64,000 nucleotides of DNA from Alphaproteobacteria bacterium (GTDB taxonomy: Bacteria > Pseudomonadota > Alphaproteobacteria > Rs-D84): positions 3,114 through 67,113 of the forward strand of contig JAFZZS010000002.1 in NCBI GenBank assembly GCA_017615655.1, read 5' to 3'. How positions within the stretch are numbered: the stretch's first letter is position 1; each line of letters starts with the position of its first letter. Shown piece by piece: positions 52,160-63,331 of the stretch. The notes beneath the pieces were generated by a model. That model worked only from the letters and a program-made list of their open reading frames with translations. It had not been told where the DNA came from and searched no databases. Made by a program: the position numbers and the translations under genes.

Positions 52160-52185
52160 TAGGTTATTAAAAAGGAGTGTATAAA

Positions 52186-53376
52186 ATGAAAATGTATTTA
52201 CCAGGATTTGTTTTTGCAACAATGTTGGTTGCATCCATGCCGGCGATTGGTGCAACTGGTTATGGAATGAGTGGCAATTCAAATAATATGAATTATGCAC
52301 AGTATGAAACACGTTCTACAACGCGTACATATTCGAATACTGGAAATTATGGTGCCTATAACAATAGTAATTACGGGACAAGATATTATAATAATCAAGG
52401 TGCTAATCGTAATCAGATGTATCGTGGATACAATGGTGCATCAAGCACGCGTACTGTTACAACGAACAACCGCCAAACCGTACGCAGAAGTATGAAGCGT
52501 AAATACTATTTGGCGCATCCTTTCTTTCAACCAACCGAAGGTAAATTTGGTTCGATAACAGATTTGGCATATAATACCGCATCGTATAATTTTGATATTA
52601 CGCCGGCGTCGGGTGTTACGATGTCTGATACATCTGCAAAGTGGGATATGAAGCAGTATGCTGTCAAAGAAGATTTCAGTTTTGGAATCACTGACAGATT
52701 TGGTTTGTTGTTGATGGGTCGTTATGATACAACAAAATACAAATTTGATTGGTCTACTGCGCCAGATGACAAGATGGATGATCATGGGTTTAATATTTAT
52801 GGTGCTGGTGCACAGTGGCGTTTTGTTGATAATGAGAAATGGATTGGAACGCTATCTGCTTACTATGAGAGACAGCAAGATATTGCTAATGAATTCGTGT
52901 TGGATTTGAAGGCTGGTTATAAAGTTTCAAAATCGACCATATATGGACTGGCACGGGGTTGGTTGGTGAATTTCGATGAAGAAATGTATGGAAACGGCGT
53001 TGTCGGCTCAAATGAAAGTGGGTACACTGAATCTATATTCTTGGAATATGATGGCGATGCCGAAAGAACGTTTTTCTTTGAAGCTGGACTTGGTGTATTT
53101 AGTGTACTGGATGAAGATTGGACATTGAATGTCGAGGCTCTTGTTGGTAATTATGATTGGCATAATCAGGCATCCATCAAGGGGGCGATTGGTTGGCAAC
53201 CAAACGATTGGTTCGCTTTGAACTTGTATGTCAAAACATCATTCTTTGATAGTGCCGATGGTAAGAATTTAGATTTCTATGGCACCGAATCAGGAATATG
53301 GAAATACATGGGTGAAGCAAAATTAGATAAGTACAGAGAAATGTCTGTTGGTGGTCAGATAATATTCTATTTCTAA
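52186..53376 (+). CDS. Outer-membrane beta-barrel protein with N/Y/G/R-rich low-complexity N-terminal region
   Basis: Signal peptide (FVFATMLVASMPAIGA), about 80 aa of N/Y/G-rich sequence, alternating amphipathic strands, C-terminal aromatic ...IIFYF; 397 aa. Confidence 0.6.
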   Translation: MKMYLPGFVFATMLVASMPAIGATGYGMSGNSNNMNYAQYETRSTTRTYSNTGNYGAYNNSNYGTRYYNNQGANRNQMYRGYNGASSTRTVTTNNRQTVRRSMKRKYYLAHPFFQPTEGKFGSITDLAYNTASYNFDITPASGVTMSDTSAKWDMKQYAVKEDFSFGITDRFGLLLMGRYDTTKYKFDWSTAPDDKMDDHGFNIYGAGAQWRFVDNEKWIGTLSAYYERQQDIANEFVLDLKAGYKVSKSTIYGLARGWLVNFDEEMYGNGVVGSNESGYTESIFLEYDGDAERTFFFEAGLGVFSVLDEDWTLNVEALVGNYDWHNQASIKGAIGWQPNDWFALNLYVKTSFFDSADGKNLDFYGTESGIWKYMGEAKLDKYREMSVGGQIIFYF

Positions 53377-53426: not shown

Positions 53427-54152
53427 ATGATGAAAATGCGCAAAATTTTATCTCTTTGTATATTGTCTGTGTTATGCGGTGCTCCTGCGTATTCACTTGA
53501 TTTGTCACAAGATACATCTGATCCATTATTCTTGCAGGCACGTGGTGGGTTGTTATCCAAGACTGGACTGGATTATTTTGAAACTGGGTTAAGGGTAGGT
53601 CAGTCATTATCGTATGGCTTGGCAGACAAGTTTGTAATTGGAGGCAGTGTTCATTATCAACGTGATTTTGAACGTTCTGAAAACGGTTTCTCGAGTATAG
53701 ATTTAGGTGGCGTGTATCGTATAGGAACTGCGGCAGAAAATGCGCAACATATTATATATGATTTTCTAATTGGACTTAAATTTGGCGGGTCGCATCGCGT
53801 ACGTACCCCGGATTATGCTGATTCTGCGTATTATGTTGGGTTGCGTTTTGGTCGTCAGTACGAAGGTGTCACTTTTGCTGGTACAATAAAATCTACGTGG
53901 ATATTTGATGATGTGCCATTAGGTATGGCATTCATAGACTTTGTGCCAGAATTTTATTTTCGTGTGAATAATAATTGGCGTGTTGGTGGAAATGTTGCCT
54001 TGCGCAAGGCAACAAATTCGTATTATAACGAGGAATCTATTGGTCTAAATATTGTTCGTGAATATGGACGGACGCAGTACGCTGGGCATATAGACTACGC
54101 ATTCGAGGCCGAAGATATATCGGCTGGTGTTTCAGTTAATATATTATTTTAA
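53427..54152 (+). CDS. Outer-membrane beta-barrel protein (paralog of the upstream gene)
   Basis: Signal peptide (ILSLCILSVLCGAPAYS), C-terminal ...VNILF. The internal FSFGITDRFGLLLMGRYD / LSYGLADKFVIGGSVHYQ correspondence with the upstream OMP suggests paralogy. Confidence 0.55.
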   Translation: MMKMRKILSLCILSVLCGAPAYSLDLSQDTSDPLFLQARGGLLSKTGLDYFETGLRVGQSLSYGLADKFVIGGSVHYQRDFERSENGFSSIDLGGVYRIGTAAENAQHIIYDFLIGLKFGGSHRVRTPDYADSAYYVGLRFGRQYEGVTFAGTIKSTWIFDDVPLGMAFIDFVPEFYFRVNNNWRVGGNVALRKATNSYYNEESIGLNIVREYGRTQYAGHIDYAFEAEDISAGVSVNILF

Positions 54153-55539: not shown

Positions 55540-57552
55540 ATGCGTGTTTGTATAAATGTTGAAGATAAGCGTTGGAAAAAATATAAAATTGATTTTTCAA
55601 AAATTGTCAATGCGTCAGTTCCTGCTAAATACAAAAATTCTGAGGTTTCAATTACACTTGTTAATGATGATGAAATACGCAAAATAAATAAGAAGTATCG
55701 CAAGATAAATAAACCAACTAATGTCCTGTCGTTTGAGTTATCAGATGATATTTTGTTGGGTGATATATTTATTTCAATTGATACTGTGATGCGCGAATCC
55801 AAACAGGAACATATTTCAGTCGCAGAACATACCGCACATATGGTTGTCCATGGCATATTACATTTATTGGGATATGACCATATGACCGATAAAGATGCGC
55901 AAAAAATGGAAACAAAGGAAATAAATATATTACGTAAGTTGGGTTACAAAAATCCATATATAAACGATGGTGATATCTGTTCAGATAGAATGTGTTGCCC
56001 CGGTGAAAAAACAATAAGTGCGTTTAGACATTTTTTTGAGGGTGCACTTGGTCGAACGATATTATACGTATTGTTTGGTTTAATATCATCATTAGGTTTT
56101 GCGCCATTCTATATGTGGTGGTTTTCTATAATTGGTATTGGGGGGGCATACTTGTTAAGTATAAAAAGTTTACCTGGACATTCGGGAATAGGTAAATTTA
56201 TACGTATCTTTCCATTTGGCGCATTTTATGCAATTGCGATGTTCTGGTGGGTATTGCATAGTATTTATGTTATTCCAGAACTTGCGGCACAATTCGCAAT
56301 ATGGACGATACCAGGGCTTATAGGTATAGGTTTGGTTGGTGGTATTGTGTTTTCCTTTCCATTTATGGCTATTTCATCTGTACGGGCAAATGCGGCGTGT
56401 AGACCATTTTTATTTGCGGCTGTTTGGACCCTTGTGCTGTGGTGTCGTGAATGGATTTTTACTGGGTTTCCATGGAATCCGATCGCTAATATTGTCATTG
56501 GAAATGTATATTTATCCAATTCTATGTCATTGTATGGGGCATTAGGGTTAACATTTGTGATAATTGGTTTGATTGGTGCACTATCGGAAATTATCAGAAA
56601 TTTCCGTAATACGATGAATTGGTTTGCTATGTTTGTTTTTGTGTGTCTGGGTGCACTTGGTATTATTTATGGCGTTAGAAATATAAATGTTTCTGCCCAA
56701 AATCATGGGATTAATTCACCGCTTATTCGTATTATACAACCCGCGCAAAGTGCTGCACAAAAAGCAACACATTCACGTACGGCTGCGCTACAAAATGCAA
56801 ATTATAATATCAATCTGATGGTGTCGTTGGCATCCATAGATGGCGAATATGATTTGGCGGTATTTCCAGAAACAGCATATCCATTTGTTATGACAGATGG
56901 GGATATAATGTCAATTTCGCGTTTGCTATCAAAACCAATAGTTATTGGTTCCAATTATTACAGTGATGGTAATTTGTATAATTCACTGATTGTATCGGAC
57001 GTAGATGGCGTAATTTCTCATGTATACAGTAAGTCACATTTGGTACCGTTTGGCGAATATCGGCCATTTGGAAATATTATACCAACACCAGGACAATTAA
57101 CGCCTGGTAATGGACCAGAACTTATTAAAATGAATATCAAAGGACAAAGATTTGTATTTGCCCCTGCGGTTTGTTATGAAGTAATATTTTCTGATTCGTT
57201 GATACCAAACGGTCAAACACCAGATGCAATTATCAATATAACAAATGATAATTGGTTTGGTAAGACCCCTGGGACGTATCAGCATCTTGATATGGTGCGC
57301 AGATATGCAATTGAATCAGGCTTGCCGATTATTCGGGCAAATTATTCGGGTGTTAGTGCATTTATTGCCGCAGATGGTAATGTTGTTGCGTATATGCCCG
57401 TAAGCCAAACAGGTCAAATAGATGGCTTTGTATGGGGTGCGCACAAGACAATGTATCGTGTAATTGGTCGTGATATGTGGATGATAATCATTTTGATAAT
57501 TTCGTGCTTGGCGGTGATATGGATTTCAGAAGTTTCACGCAATCGTTCCTGA
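55540..57552 (+). CDS. In-frame fusion: endoribonuclease YbeY (N-terminal ~150 aa) plus apolipoprotein N-acyltransferase Lnt (C-terminal ~520 aa)
   Basis: YbeY metal site HGILHLLGYDH at residues ~104-114. The Lnt multi-TM region and CN-hydrolase domain (VFPETAYPF, CYEVIF) follow with no intervening stop. An internal Met that could start Lnt lies at 55990. Confidence 0.7.
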   Translation: MRVCINVEDKRWKKYKIDFSKIVNASVPAKYKNSEVSITLVNDDEIRKINKKYRKINKPTNVLSFELSDDILLGDIFISIDTVMRESKQEHISVAEHTAHMVVHGILHLLGYDHMTDKDAQKMETKEINILRKLGYKNPYINDGDICSDRMCCPGEKTISAFRHFFEGALGRTILYVLFGLISSLGFAPFYMWWFSIIGIGGAYLLSIKSLPGHSGIGKFIRIFPFGAFYAIAMFWWVLHSIYVIPELAAQFAIWTIPGLIGIGLVGGIVFSFPFMAISSVRANAACRPFLFAAVWTLVLWCREWIFTGFPWNPIANIVIGNVYLSNSMSLYGALGLTFVIIGLIGALSEIIRNFRNTMNWFAMFVFVCLGALGIIYGVRNINVSAQNHGINSPLIRIIQPAQSAAQKATHSRTAALQNANYNINLMVSLASIDGEYDLAVFPETAYPFVMTDGDIMSISRLLSKPIVIGSNYYSDGNLYNSLIVSDVDGVISHVYSKSHLVPFGEYRPFGNIIPTPGQLTPGNGPELIKMNIKGQRFVFAPAVCYEVIFSDSLIPNGQTPDAIINITNDNWFGKTPGTYQHLDMVRRYAIESGLPIIRANYSGVSAFIAADGNVVAYMPVSQTGQIDGFVWGAHKTMYRVIGRDMWMIIILIISCLAVIWISEVSRNRS

Positions 57553-57556
57553 AGAT

Positions 57557-57760
57557 TTATTGGTGAAAATAATTTAATATCCATACACGGATTGCAGATG
57601 ACAGATTTGTCTTTAATTTACGTGCCGAATCGATTTCATTAATAATCTTGGCCACAGATGTTGCACGAATTTCTGCGATTTCATGTAATGCGTCTATAAA
57701 TTCTGACTCAAGTGAAATACTGGTTTGATGCCCTGATAAAGAAACAGATATTTTCTTCAT
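57557..57760 (-). CDS. Ribbon-helix-helix (RHH_4 family) protein
   Basis: KISVSLSGHQTSISLESEFIDALHEIAEIRATSVAKIINEIDSAR...NLSSAIRVWIL matches the conserved alphaproteobacterial RHH_4 pattern; 67 aa. Confidence 0.6.
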   Translation of the reverse strand: MKKISVSLSGHQTSISLESEFIDALHEIAEIRATSVAKIINEIDSARKLKTNLSSAIRVWILNYFHQ

Positions 57761-57761
57761 T

Positions 57762-58196
57762 TTATATTTTACCCCCCATCAAACAGTCCAAAATGGCACG
57801 GTATGGATCATCGTATTGACGTAAAATGCTAAGCCCCAAATTATCTAGCATAAAGCAGGTGCCAAAAGAATCAAATGCAAACCAAAACAAATCATTACGA
57901 CCAAAGATTGTTTTGCCACGAATACTCGGGATGTTGGTTAAATCAGAATTTATTTGAAAAATATTTGGAGTTGGGTATTTGGAAGAACTGGCAAATTCTG
58001 TTGGACCAAATATATACCCAGATCCTAATTTCATGCCGCCATATTTTTGGTAAATACTTATCATATACGATGGTAACATAGCAGCCCGAATTTTTTGTAG
58101 GTTCAGGTTTACTAGGTTTATTTGTCCGGGTGTTGCCGCAAGGGCGCATGTGACATTTCGTTCTTTAATTTTTGTTAAGAAATCCTGCTCTGTCAT
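57762..58196 (-). CDS. SUKH-1 (SMI1/KNR4)-like protein, putative immunity-type domain
   Basis: MLPSYMISIYQKYGGMKLGSGYIFG matches the LPxxYxxFLxxxNGG core. LFWFAFDSFGTCFMLD matches the C-terminal IPFAxDGxGxxxCLD motif of SUKH-1. 144 aa; 1-nt gap to the RHH gene. Confidence 0.5.
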   Translation of the reverse strand: MTEQDFLTKIKERNVTCALAATPGQINLVNLNLQKIRAAMLPSYMISIYQKYGGMKLGSGYIFGPTEFASSSKYPTPNIFQINSDLTNIPSIRGKTIFGRNDLFWFAFDSFGTCFMLDNLGLSILRQYDDPYRAILDCLMGGKI

Positions 58197-58208: not shown

Positions 58209-58712
58209 TTATTGGCGGCGATTTGATGCGATATTTGCCGCCATTTGACTAAGTCTGTCCGCGACAGCATTACCACCGTTGCCTGCAAGTGTTGAATGTA
58301 TAGGTAAGTATATTTTTTTCTTGGGATTTGGTAACCATATTGTTTCATTCCCAGATTGTTCGATTATGAATCTATCAAGGTTTTGTGATAACGGAAAAGT
58401 GTAGCACATAAACAAATTATCAAGATTTAATTGTCCGCCCCATATCAGCGGTACACGAAATCGTATTGATAGATTATCCGGAATATTTTGCCCTGTTAAT
58501 AACGCCATAAATTCATCGCGATTAAGGTTCATTAATGCCAGTTCTTGGACACAGTCAGATAGCGACTTCATAAAAGTATGACAAAGTTCTTTGTATTGTT
58601 GAAACCAATCTGGTGATACTCGAACATTATGAGGATTTATGGGCATGACCGGCATGTCCGGCATTTTCAGGTCTTTTAGGCGATTTTCAGCGTTTGCTTG
58701 TGTCCATTGCAT
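58209..58712 (-). CDS. Hypothetical protein (167 aa) in toxin-position upstream of SUKH-like gene
   Basis: No recognisable motifs. 12-nt gap to the downstream gene and 1-nt overlap with the upstream gene. Confidence 0.45.
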   Translation of the reverse strand: MQWTQANAENRLKDLKMPDMPVMPINPHNVRVSPDWFQQYKELCHTFMKSLSDCVQELALMNLNRDEFMALLTGQNIPDNLSIRFRVPLIWGGQLNLDNLFMCYTFPLSQNLDRFIIEQSGNETIWLPNPKKKIYLPIHSTLAGNGGNAVADRLSQMAANIASNRRQ

Positions 58713-59626
58713 TAATTTTTACCTATGTAATTAGTAACAGTGCTTATGTACGTAGATATAGCATCAAATAATTCTTTGTCAAAGTCTTTTGGTTGTGTGT
58801 TTTGATTTTCTGACATAAACTTCTTGAATTGTTGTAAATCACTAAATGTAGATATAAGTTCATGTCTAGTTGTACCAGTTGGTGCAATTAAACAGCCACG
58901 TAAATGAATGTCGTCTGCACTATCCCCAAGGGTTTCTTCAAAAAGAGTTACAAGGGTTTGAAATGCATCGACTACATCGGTTACACTTGCACTTGATGCC
59001 CCAATCCACAGTGTCTGATCATAACCAAGCGCAACGATTGGATTGTTCAACTTTCCAATGTGTTTACATGGTTTCATTATATATCCTGCAGATTCAAATA
59101 TTCGGTTCATTTCCATTGCAAATGGACTGTGATTATTATTTGATTTTGTTGGTGCCATCCCAGTAGGTTGTGCAGAAAGTGATGGTTGGGTATTTAATTG
59201 TTGTGTTGGTGGTGAAAATCTTTTCTGTTTAGTTGCAACCCGATTTAGCGCAGGTGATAATGGACGGGCTTGGGCAGATGGGGGGGGCCCATAGCTACTT
59301 AATACAGTCGGCTGTGTTGTAGCAGGCTGTTGTGGTTCAATAACCTGAGGCTGAGGTTTTGGCTGAACAAGAAATGGAATTTTACGAAAACGCGGTCTGA
59401 CAATCAGGTAGAGCCCGGTCAGTGCCAATATAATAGCAACTACAAGTGAAACATAGAATTCTGGTTTTATATTTGTACGCGTGGCTTGAAGTTCTGAAAG
59501 ATATTCCCAATGTGCCGCGGAAAATATATCAAATCCATACCGCATATTCATCCAAAAGGTTGCTGCAAGCGCAACCGTCATCAACCACAATATACCAAGT
59601 AAAATTTTATCGAAATTTCTTTTCAT
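58712..59626 (-). CDS. Hypothetical bitopic membrane protein: 2 TM helices, Pro/Gln-rich linker, C-terminal ~130-aa Cys-containing globular domain
   Basis: TM segments ILLGILWLMTVALAATFWM and FYVSLVVAIILALTGLYLIV. Linker QPKPQPQVIEPQQPATTQPTVL...PPPSAQARPLSP...QPSLSAQPTGMAP. 304 aa, first gene of the cassette. Confidence 0.5.
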   Translation of the reverse strand: MKRNFDKILLGILWLMTVALAATFWMNMRYGFDIFSAAHWEYLSELQATRTNIKPEFYVSLVVAIILALTGLYLIVRPRFRKIPFLVQPKPQPQVIEPQQPATTQPTVLSSYGPPPSAQARPLSPALNRVATKQKRFSPPTQQLNTQPSLSAQPTGMAPTKSNNNHSPFAMEMNRIFESAGYIMKPCKHIGKLNNPIVALGYDQTLWIGASSASVTDVVDAFQTLVTLFEETLGDSADDIHLRGCLIAPTGTTRHELISTFSDLQQFKKFMSENQNTQPKDFDKELFDAISTYISTVTNYIGKN

Positions 59627-59669: not shown

Positions 59670-60356
59670 ATGATAAAAACAGATGCCATTTTTGATGTGA
59701 TAGATGAATTTTCGTGCATATGGGTTCCGACTAGTGTCGAAGCCCCCGATCTTGCAAAAATATCAAACATTGTTATTGTGCAGAATAAAGAATTTTTGTC
59801 ATTACCAATTGGGGCAATAGGTCGGGTATGGCCGTGGCTGGAACATAGTAAAGTAAAATTATTAACACGTCTGGAATTTGATTTTAAAAATGATACTACA
59901 CCAGATATGGCGATGTCTGAATTAGCAACGAAGACAACAGAAGCTTTTAGACATGGGGCGTCAGGGGCGCAAATTTTTGTTCACATTAATAATATTCCAG
60001 AATTTGTAAAAATGATTTTACCGTTGCGGGACGATTTGTTTTTTGAACGGTATCTTTCTGTGGCGATAAATATTGATGAAATTAAAAACGGTAATGTAAA
60101 AGACGTCTTGGAATTGCTTGCAAAAATCAAACCCGATTCTGTTTTAGTAATTGCAGATGGCGATTCGTTTGACCCGAAGTCTGATTTTGTAGGGCGAATT
60201 TTCGGTATGCTTGAAAATTGGGGATGGGACTTTGCATTACATATTATGTTCGGTGGCAATATGATGCGTGTAAGTCAGGTTTTACGTCTTGTACAAAGAA
60301 TGCAACCTAAATTAATATCTGATTTGCGGGTCTTTATCATTCCACCCCAAGAATAA
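59670..60356 (+). CDS. Hypothetical protein (228 aa), divergent from the 4-gene cassette
   Basis: ORF with reasonable codon usage and no recognisable family. 20-nt convergent overlap with the trmB 3' end. Confidence 0.4.
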   Translation: MIKTDAIFDVIDEFSCIWVPTSVEAPDLAKISNIVIVQNKEFLSLPIGAIGRVWPWLEHSKVKLLTRLEFDFKNDTTPDMAMSELATKTTEAFRHGASGAQIFVHINNIPEFVKMILPLRDDLFFERYLSVAINIDEIKNGNVKDVLELLAKIKPDSVLVIADGDSFDPKSDFVGRIFGMLENWGWDFALHIMFGGNMMRVSQVLRLVQRMQPKLISDLRVFIIPPQE

Positions 60357-61005: not shown

Positions 61006-62586
61006 TTGATAATGAGAACAGGTTTAAGTGAAGATTTAATTGCGCGTGTTTTGGGCGGTGCACCAAAGTATACTTTGGCAGAACTTGAGGAAAAATTTCC
61101 ATTGCGTGTATTACCCGATGGGGCTCTGGTAACCCGATTCGCACCAAGTCCAACCGGTTTTATGCATATTGGAAATCTTTATGGGGCGTTGATTGATTAT
61201 AAATTAGCGCGTCAATCGGGTGGTGTGTTTATGTTACGCATCGAAGATACTGATACAAAACGTGAAGTTTCTGGGGCGGTTGAGATAGTCAAAAATGCGA
61301 TGCAAAGTTTCGGCTTAGAGTATAATAATGATGAACAATATGGTCCGTATTATCAATCGCAACGCAGGGAAATATACCATTCTGTGGCGGCGGAATTATT
61401 AAGAACAGGGCATGCATATCCATGCTTTTTAACGGCACAAGATATGGAAAAAATTCGCGCGGAACAATCGTCTGCGGGGTTTGCAACGGGTATCTATGGC
61501 GAATTTGCACGTGATCGTGATATAACCGAAGAAGACATTATAAAGCATCTTGATAATGGCGAGATACCGTCTATTCGGCTGTATTCAACTGGTGACCCAG
61601 CAAAAAGAATTTTCTGTAAAGATGCTGTTCGTGGGTCAATTGGATTTCCAGAAAATAATGAAGACATTGTCTTAGTAAAATCAAATGATGGATTACCAAC
61701 ATACCATTTCGCGCATTTATGTGATGACCACTTTATGCGTACAACACATGTTGTTCGTGGTGAAGAATGGTTACCATCATTGCCATTACACTATCAATTG
61801 TTTCGCATGATGGAATGGACACCACCAATTTATATTCATACGGCAACGTTGGATAAAATAGATGCAGAAACAGGTAAGCAACGTAAAATGTCTAAACGTA
61901 AAGACCCAGAAAGTAATGTCGCATTTTTCTTGCAAGAAGGTTGGCCAACGGATGCGGTAATTGAATATTTAGGAAATATTTTGGCATCTGGGTACGAAGA
62001 AGCAAAATTAAAGGGTGCGGTAAAAAATTTCTGGGAATACGAAATGAAACCAAAAAAGATACCAATGTCGGGTGGTTTGTTCGATATGAAGAAATTAGAG
62101 TGGTGGTCGAAAGAATACATTGGTGCAATGTCTGTTCCTGATTTAGTAAAAAGTGTTATCGATTGGGCAAATGAATACGGTGATGAAAAACAAAAAATGC
62201 AGGTCGCAGATACCGATTATTTGACTGCGGTGCTTTCTATTGAACGCGACAATCCACGCCGTATACGTAAAGATTTTATTACATGGAAACAGACATTGGA
62301 AATAGAAGAATTTTTCTGGGATGAATTGTTTGTGGCGAACAAGGAATATAAATATAATACGGATGTATTGAACGCATTTTTAGAAACGTTTAATATTGCT
62401 GATGATAAAGATGTGTGGTGGAATAAAATAGTTGCGATTGCCGAAAAATTCGGCGTTAAAAATGGTGATGTTGCGATGAATTTGCGAGTCGCACTTTCAG
62501 GGCGCATGAATACGCCGGACCTTTATTCTATTATGCAGGTTATGGGCGAAGGACGGGTTAAGGAGAGAATAAAGAATGCAATTTAA
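61006..62586 (+). CDS. gltX: Glutamate--tRNA ligase (long form with extended C-terminal domain)
   Basis: Class I HIGH motif (PTGFMHIGN) and KMSKS (KMSKR); 526 aa. Alternative start at 61012. Confidence 0.85.
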   Translation: MIMRTGLSEDLIARVLGGAPKYTLAELEEKFPLRVLPDGALVTRFAPSPTGFMHIGNLYGALIDYKLARQSGGVFMLRIEDTDTKREVSGAVEIVKNAMQSFGLEYNNDEQYGPYYQSQRREIYHSVAAELLRTGHAYPCFLTAQDMEKIRAEQSSAGFATGIYGEFARDRDITEEDIIKHLDNGEIPSIRLYSTGDPAKRIFCKDAVRGSIGFPENNEDIVLVKSNDGLPTYHFAHLCDDHFMRTTHVVRGEEWLPSLPLHYQLFRMMEWTPPIYIHTATLDKIDAETGKQRKMSKRKDPESNVAFFLQEGWPTDAVIEYLGNILASGYEEAKLKGAVKNFWEYEMKPKKIPMSGGLFDMKKLEWWSKEYIGAMSVPDLVKSVIDWANEYGDEKQKMQVADTDYLTAVLSIERDNPRRIRKDFITWKQTLEIEEFFWDELFVANKEYKYNTDVLNAFLETFNIADDKDVWWNKIVAIAEKFGVKNGDVAMNLRVALSGRMNTPDLYSIMQVMGEGRVKERIKNAI

Positions 62587-63331
62587 ACCAAATCTTAATT
62601 TATTGAATGAATGGCGCGATGCCGAACATGCGGTAAATTTTGCTAGTAATACCGCATTTATTTCTGTGTTTAAACGTGATAACAAAACACTGGTATATAT
62701 GTGCGACCGACACAAATTAAACATATCTTTTAATATGGTTGATATGTGTTTTGCTGATGATTTCGGTGTAAAGCCAGATGTTTTATTGACCGAAATGGAA
62801 AATGATGGTTTTAAATGGAAATTAAATTGGCATGGGTTGCAGGATAATACGCTTGCCTATGCGGCGGCTGTGGCGGCAAAGAGAAATTTACCGATTGTAT
62901 TCGCAGATTTATCAGATGATCAAATGGTTAAAGTCATAAATCGTGGATTTCTAGATAATAAAATTACAGTTGCAGATTTAGGTAGAGTTCTTGGAAAATC
63001 GGGTGGGCCAGATTCCCATGGAAATCTAGATCAGCAAATGTTGGCGTATTTAGATAGGTTTGGACGCAATCCATTTATGTTACAAAATATTGCCGCAGCA
63101 TTGAATAAATATGATACAGTATTTTGTATATTTGGCATAGGACATTATGAATGCCAACGAAGTGCATTGGAAGATATGTTGGGCAAACCAGAGTATATAA
63201 CACAAATCAAAAATATGCGTGGCGATTTTTCTAATTTAAATATAACACCAATGAAATTGTATGATTTTGAACAGCCAAATACTATGGGGGTAATTATAAA
63301 TGACAAAAACAAGACGTTTGGTTCGCGCTAA
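62576..63331 (+). CDS. Hypothetical protein (251 aa), translationally coupled to gltX
   Basis: 11-nt overlap with the gltX 3' end; no recognisable family. Confidence 0.4.
   Translation: MQFKPNLNLLNEWRDAEHAVNFASNTAFISVFKRDNKTLVYMCDRHKLNISFNMVDMCFADDFGVKPDVLLTEMENDGFKWKLNWHGLQDNTLAYAAAVAAKRNLPIVFADLSDDQMVKVINRGFLDNKITVADLGRVLGKSGGPDSHGNLDQQMLAYLDRFGRNPFMLQNIAAALNKYDTVFCIFGIGHYECQRSALEDMLGKPEYITQIKNMRGDFSNLNITPMKLYDFEQPNTMGVIINDKNKTFGSR

Follow-up and report, generated by a model that had tools for sequence, protein, structure and literature searches.

The 144-amino-acid (aa) protein SUKH144, encoded on the minus strand at 57762..58196 of a 64,000-nt stretch of alphaproteobacterial DNA (the window; JAFZZS010000002.1 positions 3,114-67,113, order Rs-D84), has a predicted SUKH fold and is a divergent YrhA/SMI1-KNR4-like relative. 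Its gene is the third of four tightly packed genes and lies directly 3' of that for P167, a protein whose core appears to be a degenerate HNH (His-Me finger) domain. We favor the reading, which we consider probable, that an HNH toxin and its SUKH immunity protein have been domesticated here as a catalytically degenerate pair, fixed in a core operon, in which SUKH144 acts as binding subunit. The results that carry this reading, namely fold, homologies, histidine loss, synteny and slow rate of evolution, were obtained with the tools described below.

Sequence, predicted structure and family of SUKH144

SUKH144 is a single open reading frame (ORF) with an ATG start in the ORF listing of the window, and no further copy was found in the 64 kb. 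The preliminary description of this DNA had recognized two SUKH-1 (SMI1/KNR4) segments in the protein. Both are present in the 144-aa ORF, MLPSYMISIYQKYGGMKLGSGYIFG at residues 40-64 and LFWFAFDSFGTCFMLD at residues 103-118, and across 120 cluster representatives the positions that are at least 97% conserved include P42, Y49, G60, Y61, F63 and G64 in the first segment and L103, F104, W105, F106, F108, D109 and G112 in the second. Because these positions are conserved across the 120 representatives, a chance origin of both segments is excluded. The AlphaFold2 (AF2) model of SUKH144, built on its own family alignment (predicted local distance difference test score (pLDDT) 91.9, predicted TM score (pTM) 0.87), displays helices, a β-hairpin and a four-stranded meander: the first segment is modelled as helix 43-52 and the hairpin 55-57/60-62, and the second as strands 105-109 and 114-117 of the meander. 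The modelled helices, hairpin and meander correspond to the SUKH core as defined by Zhang, Iyer & Aravind (2011; PMC3113570), which places SUKH144 in the SUKH superfamily and bears out the fold that the preliminary description had anticipated from the motifs.

The narrower assignment to SUKH-1 did not hold at the level of Pfam: a scan of SUKH144 returned no family at E ≤ 1, and the SMI1_KNR4 gathering threshold (PF09346, 25.4 bits) was not reached. The sole NCBIfam match is to the YrhA family (NF038335) at 20.3 bits (E 4e-4, residues 10-118), below the 55-bit cut-off. Single scans of 43 family members gave sub-threshold SMI1_KNR4 matches for 13 (best E 0.0019), weak SUKH_6 matches for 6, and no other family. 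The whole SUKH144 family comprises 541 cluster representatives, nearly all of 142-145 aa; the 120 of these 541 that were listed are 54-81% identical to SUKH144, and all come from gut or rumen alphaproteobacterial metagenome-assembled genomes.

More distant relatives do pass the curated thresholds. A profile search of 1.8 billion representatives with the SUKH144 family reached P0283 (E 8e-6) and also P0291; P0283 passes SMI1_KNR4 (35.1 bits) and SUKH_6 (29.1 bits), and P0291 passes SUKH_5. NCBIfam YrhA scores run from 165 bits for the immunity protein of Bacillus subtilis through P0283 (135), P0290 (62.7), P0277 (58.6) and P0278 (36.2) down to the 20.3 bits of SUKH144, a continuous gradation which, judged from sequence, points to a family link. 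Comparison of the SUKH144 alignment (A1) with a true YrhA-family immunity protein by hhalign (probability 56%, E 1.1e-4, 132 columns) pairs IPSGYKKFLQTVNGLDFNGLVIYG with LPSYMISIYQKYGGMKLGSGYIFG and FFGDSDTAWYCLD with IFGRNDLFWFAFD. For the B. subtilis YrhA-family protein, no solved relative was found by sequence in the PDB. Within the SUKH superfamily, SUKH144 is a divergent protein that is nearest to SUKH-1 and the YrhA family and lies under every curated family threshold. The SUKH label by itself only adds a new member to a known superfamily, and NCBI already names one SUKH144 orthologue 'SMI1/KNR4 family protein'.

Homology of P167 to HNH toxins

P167 (58209..58712, minus strand, 167 aa), the product of the second operon gene, has 217 close homologues. 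A Pfam scan of P167 gave no match, and no LXG, MuF, Rhs or signal region was found in it. Its AF2 model (pLDDT 85.5), for which structure comparison was made against the PDB, contains a ββα unit formed by strands 81-85 and 100-104 and helix 105-118. When the homologue search was repeated with the alignment of P167 from Candidatus Enterousia (A2), the same family alone was among the matches listed, and tblastn of P167 against plasmids returned no match. Sequence searches of the PDB gave chance-level matches only: A1 to MANF, A2 to CHMP4B, A4 to a lectin, and A5, the P167 alignment extended by deep-branching homologues from the distant loci L086, L091 and L089, to XPB.

The relation to toxins emerges from the distant relatives. 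In locus L088, the gene for P0283 sits after a gene for a 432-aa protein whose HPNCRC segment we take to be MuF-like, a label for which a weak Pfam VG15 match (E 0.094) is the only tool support. The C-terminus of this protein contains PKNWQIHHKMPLADSGTNEANNLVLIQNEPYHK and has a weak Pfam HNH match (E 0.0059). By hhalign it matches A2 at 72% (E 3.4e-5) and A5 at 96.0% (E 3.9e-9), and A5 also matches the C-terminus of a B. subtilis LXG toxin at 94.9% (E 4.5e-8). tblastn with the P167-like protein of locus L097 returned a B. subtilis 'T7SS effector LXG polymorphic toxin' (type VII secretion system; E 4e-9) and several 'HNH endonuclease' proteins, and in the annotated regions fetched for the B. 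subtilis and Cytobacillus toxin hits the next gene encodes a 'YrhA family protein'. The hhalign and tblastn matches, together with this adjacency of YrhA genes, lead us to conclude that P167 is homologous to the HNH toxin, and SUKH144 to the SUKH immunity protein, of a live toxin-immunity pair; a review covers LXG toxins and their antitoxins (PMC6562991). SUKH144 starts 12 nt 3' of P167 and so occupies the position of an immunity gene behind a homologue of LXG/MuF HNH toxin C-termini.

Residues 142-167 of P167 form a conserved C-terminal tail, GNGGN..DRLSQ followed by a helix ending in Arg, in which all of 147 sequences have G146, G147, N148, D152 and R153. The tail recurs in L086, L091 and L096; its residues 142-146 are modelled by AF2 with low confidence. 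It could serve to dock SUKH144 or else a secretion or coupling factor.

Loss of active site histidines and inverted charge

In the core alignment of P167-like proteins and HNH toxins (A6), the L088 toxin and Cas8f-HNH display an HH doublet, which corresponds to R84-F85 in the window P167, K-F in L086, M-F in L091, M-L in L089 and H-I in L096 and L097. Across 147 cluster representatives, positions 84 and 106 are R and F, respectively, in 147/147, position 85 is F in 137, L in 9 and M in 1, and none of the three is ever His. The helix that reads THPxHxxxH in L095-L097 reads TFPLSQNLD in the window P167, with its histidines replaced by S109 and D113. In colicin E9, H102 is a metal ligand and H103 the general base, and H127 and H131 lie in the helix. 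On that basis, the general base would be missing from the whole P167-like clade; by the same analogy, L095-L097 would retain three putative metal ligands (H..THPxHxxxH), and the Enterousia proteins would have lost all of them (R84, F85, S109, D113). The L097 protein, with its HI doublet and THPLHAQIH helix, looks like an intermediate stage of this decay. P167 has neither the general-base His nor the helix metal-ligand His/Asn of an HNH nuclease, and it has neither the intact active site nor the N-terminal trafficking part that would be expected of a partner toxin.

The charges of the two proteins differ as well. In the live B. subtilis pair, the toxin C-terminus has a pI of 9.8 and the immunity protein one of 4.2; the medians for P167 and SUKH144 orthologues are 5.9 and 8.7, and the window SUKH144 has a pI of 8.8. 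This inversion of the basic toxin/acidic immunity pattern supports a changed function.

Operon conservation and evolutionary rate

The operon runs TM304-P167-SUKH144-RHH67 on the minus strand. TM304 and P167 share a stop-start overlap (TAATG), the 12-nt spacer between P167 and SUKH144 contains AAAGG, and a 1-nt spacer follows the SUKH144 stop codon. When one genome per GTDB species was scanned, relatives turned up in 227 species representatives, which go by the names Candidatus Enterousia, uncultured Alphaproteobacteria or 'Rickettsiales' and include a closed genome of 958,618 bp; 80 loci were kept. Enterousia lies within order Rs-D84, and for its members, with genomes mostly below 1 Mb, an obligately symbiotic or parasitic life has been predicted (PMC12306168). 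In all of the 80 kept loci with sufficient flank, the set to which our synteny statements refer, tblastn showed the order TM304-P167-SUKH-RHH to be intact, flanked by U228/trmB/gltX and, at the opposite end, by a ybeY-lnt fusion.

Identity to the window gene across the 80 loci is 53-81% for SUKH144, 48-86% for P167, 58-82% for RHH67, 59-84% for TrmB, 50-75% for YbeY-Lnt and 27-60% for TM304. The mean corrected pairwise distance is 0.61 for SUKH, 0.52 for P167, 0.46 for RHH, 0.41 for TrmB and 0.58 for YbeY-Lnt. Because of the synteny and of distances near those of YbeY-Lnt, SUKH144 can be regarded as a core gene that is inherited vertically and evolves at the pace of housekeeping genes. The variable or mobile locus of polymorphic-toxin immunity was not observed: order and flanks are fixed, the gene is single copy and its divergence is like that of YbeY-Lnt. 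The preliminary description had also pointed out that SUKH proteins are classically immunity proteins for nuclease toxins. The position of SUKH144 downstream of a toxin-domain homologue agrees with such a role, but the histidines of the partner have been lost and the locus is a conserved core operon.

PADLOC, PHROGs and Pfam returned nothing for the four operon proteins except RHH_4. We rejected a prophage or defence-island origin, as there was no PHROG or PADLOC match and the flanks are housekeeping genes. A standalone SUKH protein, which the preliminary description had allowed for, was likewise rejected, as SUKH144 is always paired with P167. A scan of the operon for promoters and terminators found no more sites than in shuffled sequence.

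Other operon genes and distant loci

TM304 (58712..59626, minus strand, 304 aa), the first operon gene, encodes two N-terminal transmembrane (TM) helices, as judged from its sequence and its alignment (A3), with a conserved loop between them, FGFNIFSAAHWEYL. Beyond the helices, a variable Pro/Gln-rich linker leads to a C-terminal domain of ~135 aa that is predicted to be cytoplasmic. The protein, including this domain, had no Pfam or PDB match. The domain may be a degenerate NERD-like domain: the protein encoded upstream in L097 has a sub-threshold Pfam NERD match (E 0.0028, 18.6 bits vs 22.1), and this NERD-like protein matches the TM304 domain weakly (15 bits by hmmsearch; hhalign probability 9%). 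The TM304 orthologues at L086:3435-4484 and L091:2452-3462 carry an insert of ~25-40 residues (..GGSSVWSSDIDGEFKSPV.., ..QLPTWMIDGERVTSPV..) that is deleted in Enterousia and that resembles the W...SP segment of NERD domains; its loss suggests a progressive reduction of a nuclease-related domain.

The last operon gene, RHH67 (57557..57760, minus strand), encodes a 67-aa ribbon-helix-helix (RHH) protein that matches Pfam RHH_4 (PF13467; E 1.1e-21, 77.1 bits). In each of the 80 species loci, as well as in L086 and L091, an RHH gene comes after the SUKH gene, and RHH67 is presumably a DNA-binding regulator of the operon. A literature search on PF13467/RHH_4 found nothing useful.

Divergent from the operon and 43 nt from TM304 lies U228 (59670..60356, plus strand, 228 aa), which had no Pfam, NCBIfam, PADLOC or PHROG match. 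It adjoins TM304 in all loci with flank and in L086, and the distance matrices of U228 and TM304 co-vary (partial r 0.61). U228 may belong to the same system as the operon.

The full tetrad is also present in L086 (GC 51%), with the same ybeY-lnt flank, and in L091 (GC 33%), with other flanks (AsmA, AcpS). The gene upstream of the SUKH relative encodes a P167-like domain in 7/8 distant loci; a lone SUKH relative, P0280, is found in L093. In two unrelated lineages, homologues of the triad bracket virD4. L089:1-7142 (GC 60%) has the order NERD-like protein, 129-aa protein, VirD4, P167-like protein (319 aa), SUKH, VirB8 and VirB9, and L097:2-3947 (GC 32%) has the order NERD-like protein, VirD4, P167-like protein (182 aa) and SUKH. 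No virD4, virB8 or virB9 homologue was found in the 64-kb window, and no type IV secretion system (T4SS) neighbors the operon in the 80 Enterousia loci, L086 or L091.

Interpretation and alternative explanations

We infer from these results that SUKH144 binds P167, that nuclease activity has been lost, and that the complex, whatever its cellular role, is tethered to the membrane and autoregulated through the RHH protein. The ancestors of P167 and SUKH144 would have been the toxin domain of an HNH nuclease and the cognate SUKH immunity protein, an arrangement that persists live in LXG (T7SS) and MuF polymorphic toxins. The pair would have become fixed in the core genome of Rs-D84/Candidatus Enterousia, translationally coupled with TM304 and the RHH_4 protein. 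As the nuclease site decayed and the charge inverted, SUKH144 would have been freed from protecting the cell against a DNase. It would then most likely be a dedicated protein-binding subunit for P167, the product of the gene directly upstream, with the retained toxin-immunity interface reused as a stable heterodimer module. TM304 would probably anchor this heterodimer at the inner membrane, with the RHH protein providing autoregulation.

Some observations weigh against this proposal. The mirror-tree comparison of SUKH144 with P167 gave a partial r of only 0.12, and the higher values among fast-evolving proteins are probably rate effects. Furthermore, R84, D113, E118, Q119 and H139 are conserved in P167; loss of the canonical histidines is no proof of a total loss of activity, and these residues could form an alternative site.

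One alternative is that the locus is a still-functional toxin-immunity or addiction module, in which P167 is harmful as a non-canonical nuclease or a non-enzymatic toxin, SUKH144 is its immunity protein or antitoxin, RHH67 the regulator, and TM304 a means of export or anchoring. The tight coupling of a toxin-domain homologue with a following SUKH gene, the homology of both to the live LXG/MuF HNH toxin and YrhA immunity pair, the RHH regulator, which is typical of type II toxin-antitoxin operons, and the existence of deeply divergent HNH toxins (Rehh preprint) all speak for a working module. We nonetheless consider it unlikely: none of the 147 representatives retains the general-base His, the histidine metal ligands are missing too, P167 lacks a basic and SUKH144 an acidic pI, P167 has no trafficking domain, and PADLOC found no match. 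Conflict genes are, moreover, normally variable and laterally mobile, whereas synteny is perfect in the 80 species representatives, with their genomes below 1 Mb, and rates are housekeeping-like.

The virD4 neighborhoods suggest a more specific version of the proposed domestication, with which it is compatible, but which we judge improbable as it stands. Here the four genes would form an accessory module of a T4SS/VirD4 pathway, with P167 as substrate or DNA-handling factor, SUKH144 as chaperone or adaptor, RHH67 as a relaxosome-like accessory and TM304 as membrane platform. Homologous genes flank virD4 in the two unrelated lineages L089 and L097, and the C-terminus of P167 contains conserved Arg, R165 being invariant in A5. 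RHH proteins are common as relaxosome accessory factors. However, the window lacks virD4, virB8 and virB9 homologues, the operon has no T4SS neighbor in the 80 Enterousia loci, L086 or L091, and the link between TM304 and NERD-like proteins is weak.

That SUKH144 is an orphan immunity protein against HNH toxins of competing gut bacteria, functionally independent of its neighbors, is very improbable: SUKH and YrhA proteins do provide immunity in other settings (PMC3113570), gut bacteria commonly carry orphan immunity genes (PMC12247911), and the distant relative P0280 is a lone gene, but SUKH144 is always single copy and always paired with P167 in a coupled operon, evolves slowly, unlike rapidly evolving orphan immunity genes, and is basic in pI, not acidic on its surface as nuclease inhibitors usually are.

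Beyond the proposed SUKH144-P167 heterodimer, we note a broader and doubtful scenario for the Rs-D84 bacteria, which depend obligately on a partner, in which the whole conflict cassette of HNH domain, SUKH protein, membrane-anchored NERD-like protein and RHH protein became an indispensable membrane complex with degenerate nuclease-type domains, derived from and maybe cooperating with a VirD4-type pathway, that serves the exchange of DNA or protein with a partner cell and not killing.

SUKH proteins beside nuclease-like genes are routinely annotated as immunity proteins of bacterial warfare. In this lineage, strong purifying selection acts on both members of the pair in each species sampled, with genomes below 1 Mb, yet the nuclease residues have been lost; a SUKH fold and an upstream HNH-like gene are thus not enough to call an active toxin system. 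If our proposal is true, the pair would show that bacteria, too, can put the interface between a toxin and its immunity protein to use in a housekeeping heterodimer, and it would provide a handle on four conserved genes in uncultured, widespread gut and rumen symbionts. In the literature searched, we found no description of a dead HNH domain and a SUKH protein kept as a strictly conserved pair in the core genome.

Other genes in the window

The ybeY-lnt fusion gene that flanks the operon (55540..57552, plus strand, 670 aa) joins the YbeY endoribonuclease of rRNA maturation (HGILHLLGYDH) to Lnt (LNT_N and CN_hydrolase). The same fusion in L001, L003, L005 and the distant L086 marks it as a trait of the lineage and not an assembly error. 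Adjacent genes at 52177..53376 and 53427..54152 (both plus strand) encode proteins of 399 and 241 aa that have signal-peptide-like N-termini and a C-terminal Phe (..IIFYF, ..VNILF) and look like outer-membrane β-barrels; for their counterparts in orthologous loci no Pfam family was recorded. The 251-aa protein encoded at 62576..63331 (plus strand) has a weak TraB/PrgY/GumN match (E 0.0076, 16.6 bits vs a cut-off of 26.8).

Comparison with known systems

The closest known relatives are the YrhA-family immunity proteins (NF038335, 'YPO0640_fam'), which share with SUKH144 the fold class and the same two motifs, and whose genes likewise lie directly 3' of a homologous HNH-type domain, that of LXG/MuF toxins. 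SUKH144 differs from them in its score (20.3 bits against a cut-off of 55) and pI (8.8 vs 4.2). Its partner P167 is a free-standing protein of 167 aa without an LXG or MuF trafficking part and without the catalytic His, and its locus is an invariant core operon with membrane and RHH genes.

Non-immunity SUKH proteins are known in Syd, which interacts with SecY, and in Knr4/Smi1. Both belong to other subfamilies than SUKH144 and lack an HNH-like partner gene.

YobK of Bacillus subtilis (PDB code 2prv), a SUKH-1/SMI1_KNR4 (PF09346) protein, is 17% identical to SUKH144, which itself has no Pfam match, and neutralises the active LXG toxin YobL (PMC6562991).

The nearest precedent, and the sole one in the literature searched, is found in animal teneurins (PMC3482391). 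Teneurins/Odd Oz carry at their C-terminus an inactive HNH domain of the GHH clade, and are eukaryotic and extracellular, with no immunity partner retained. The exaptation proposed here would, in contrast, be bacterial, with both halves of the pair kept.
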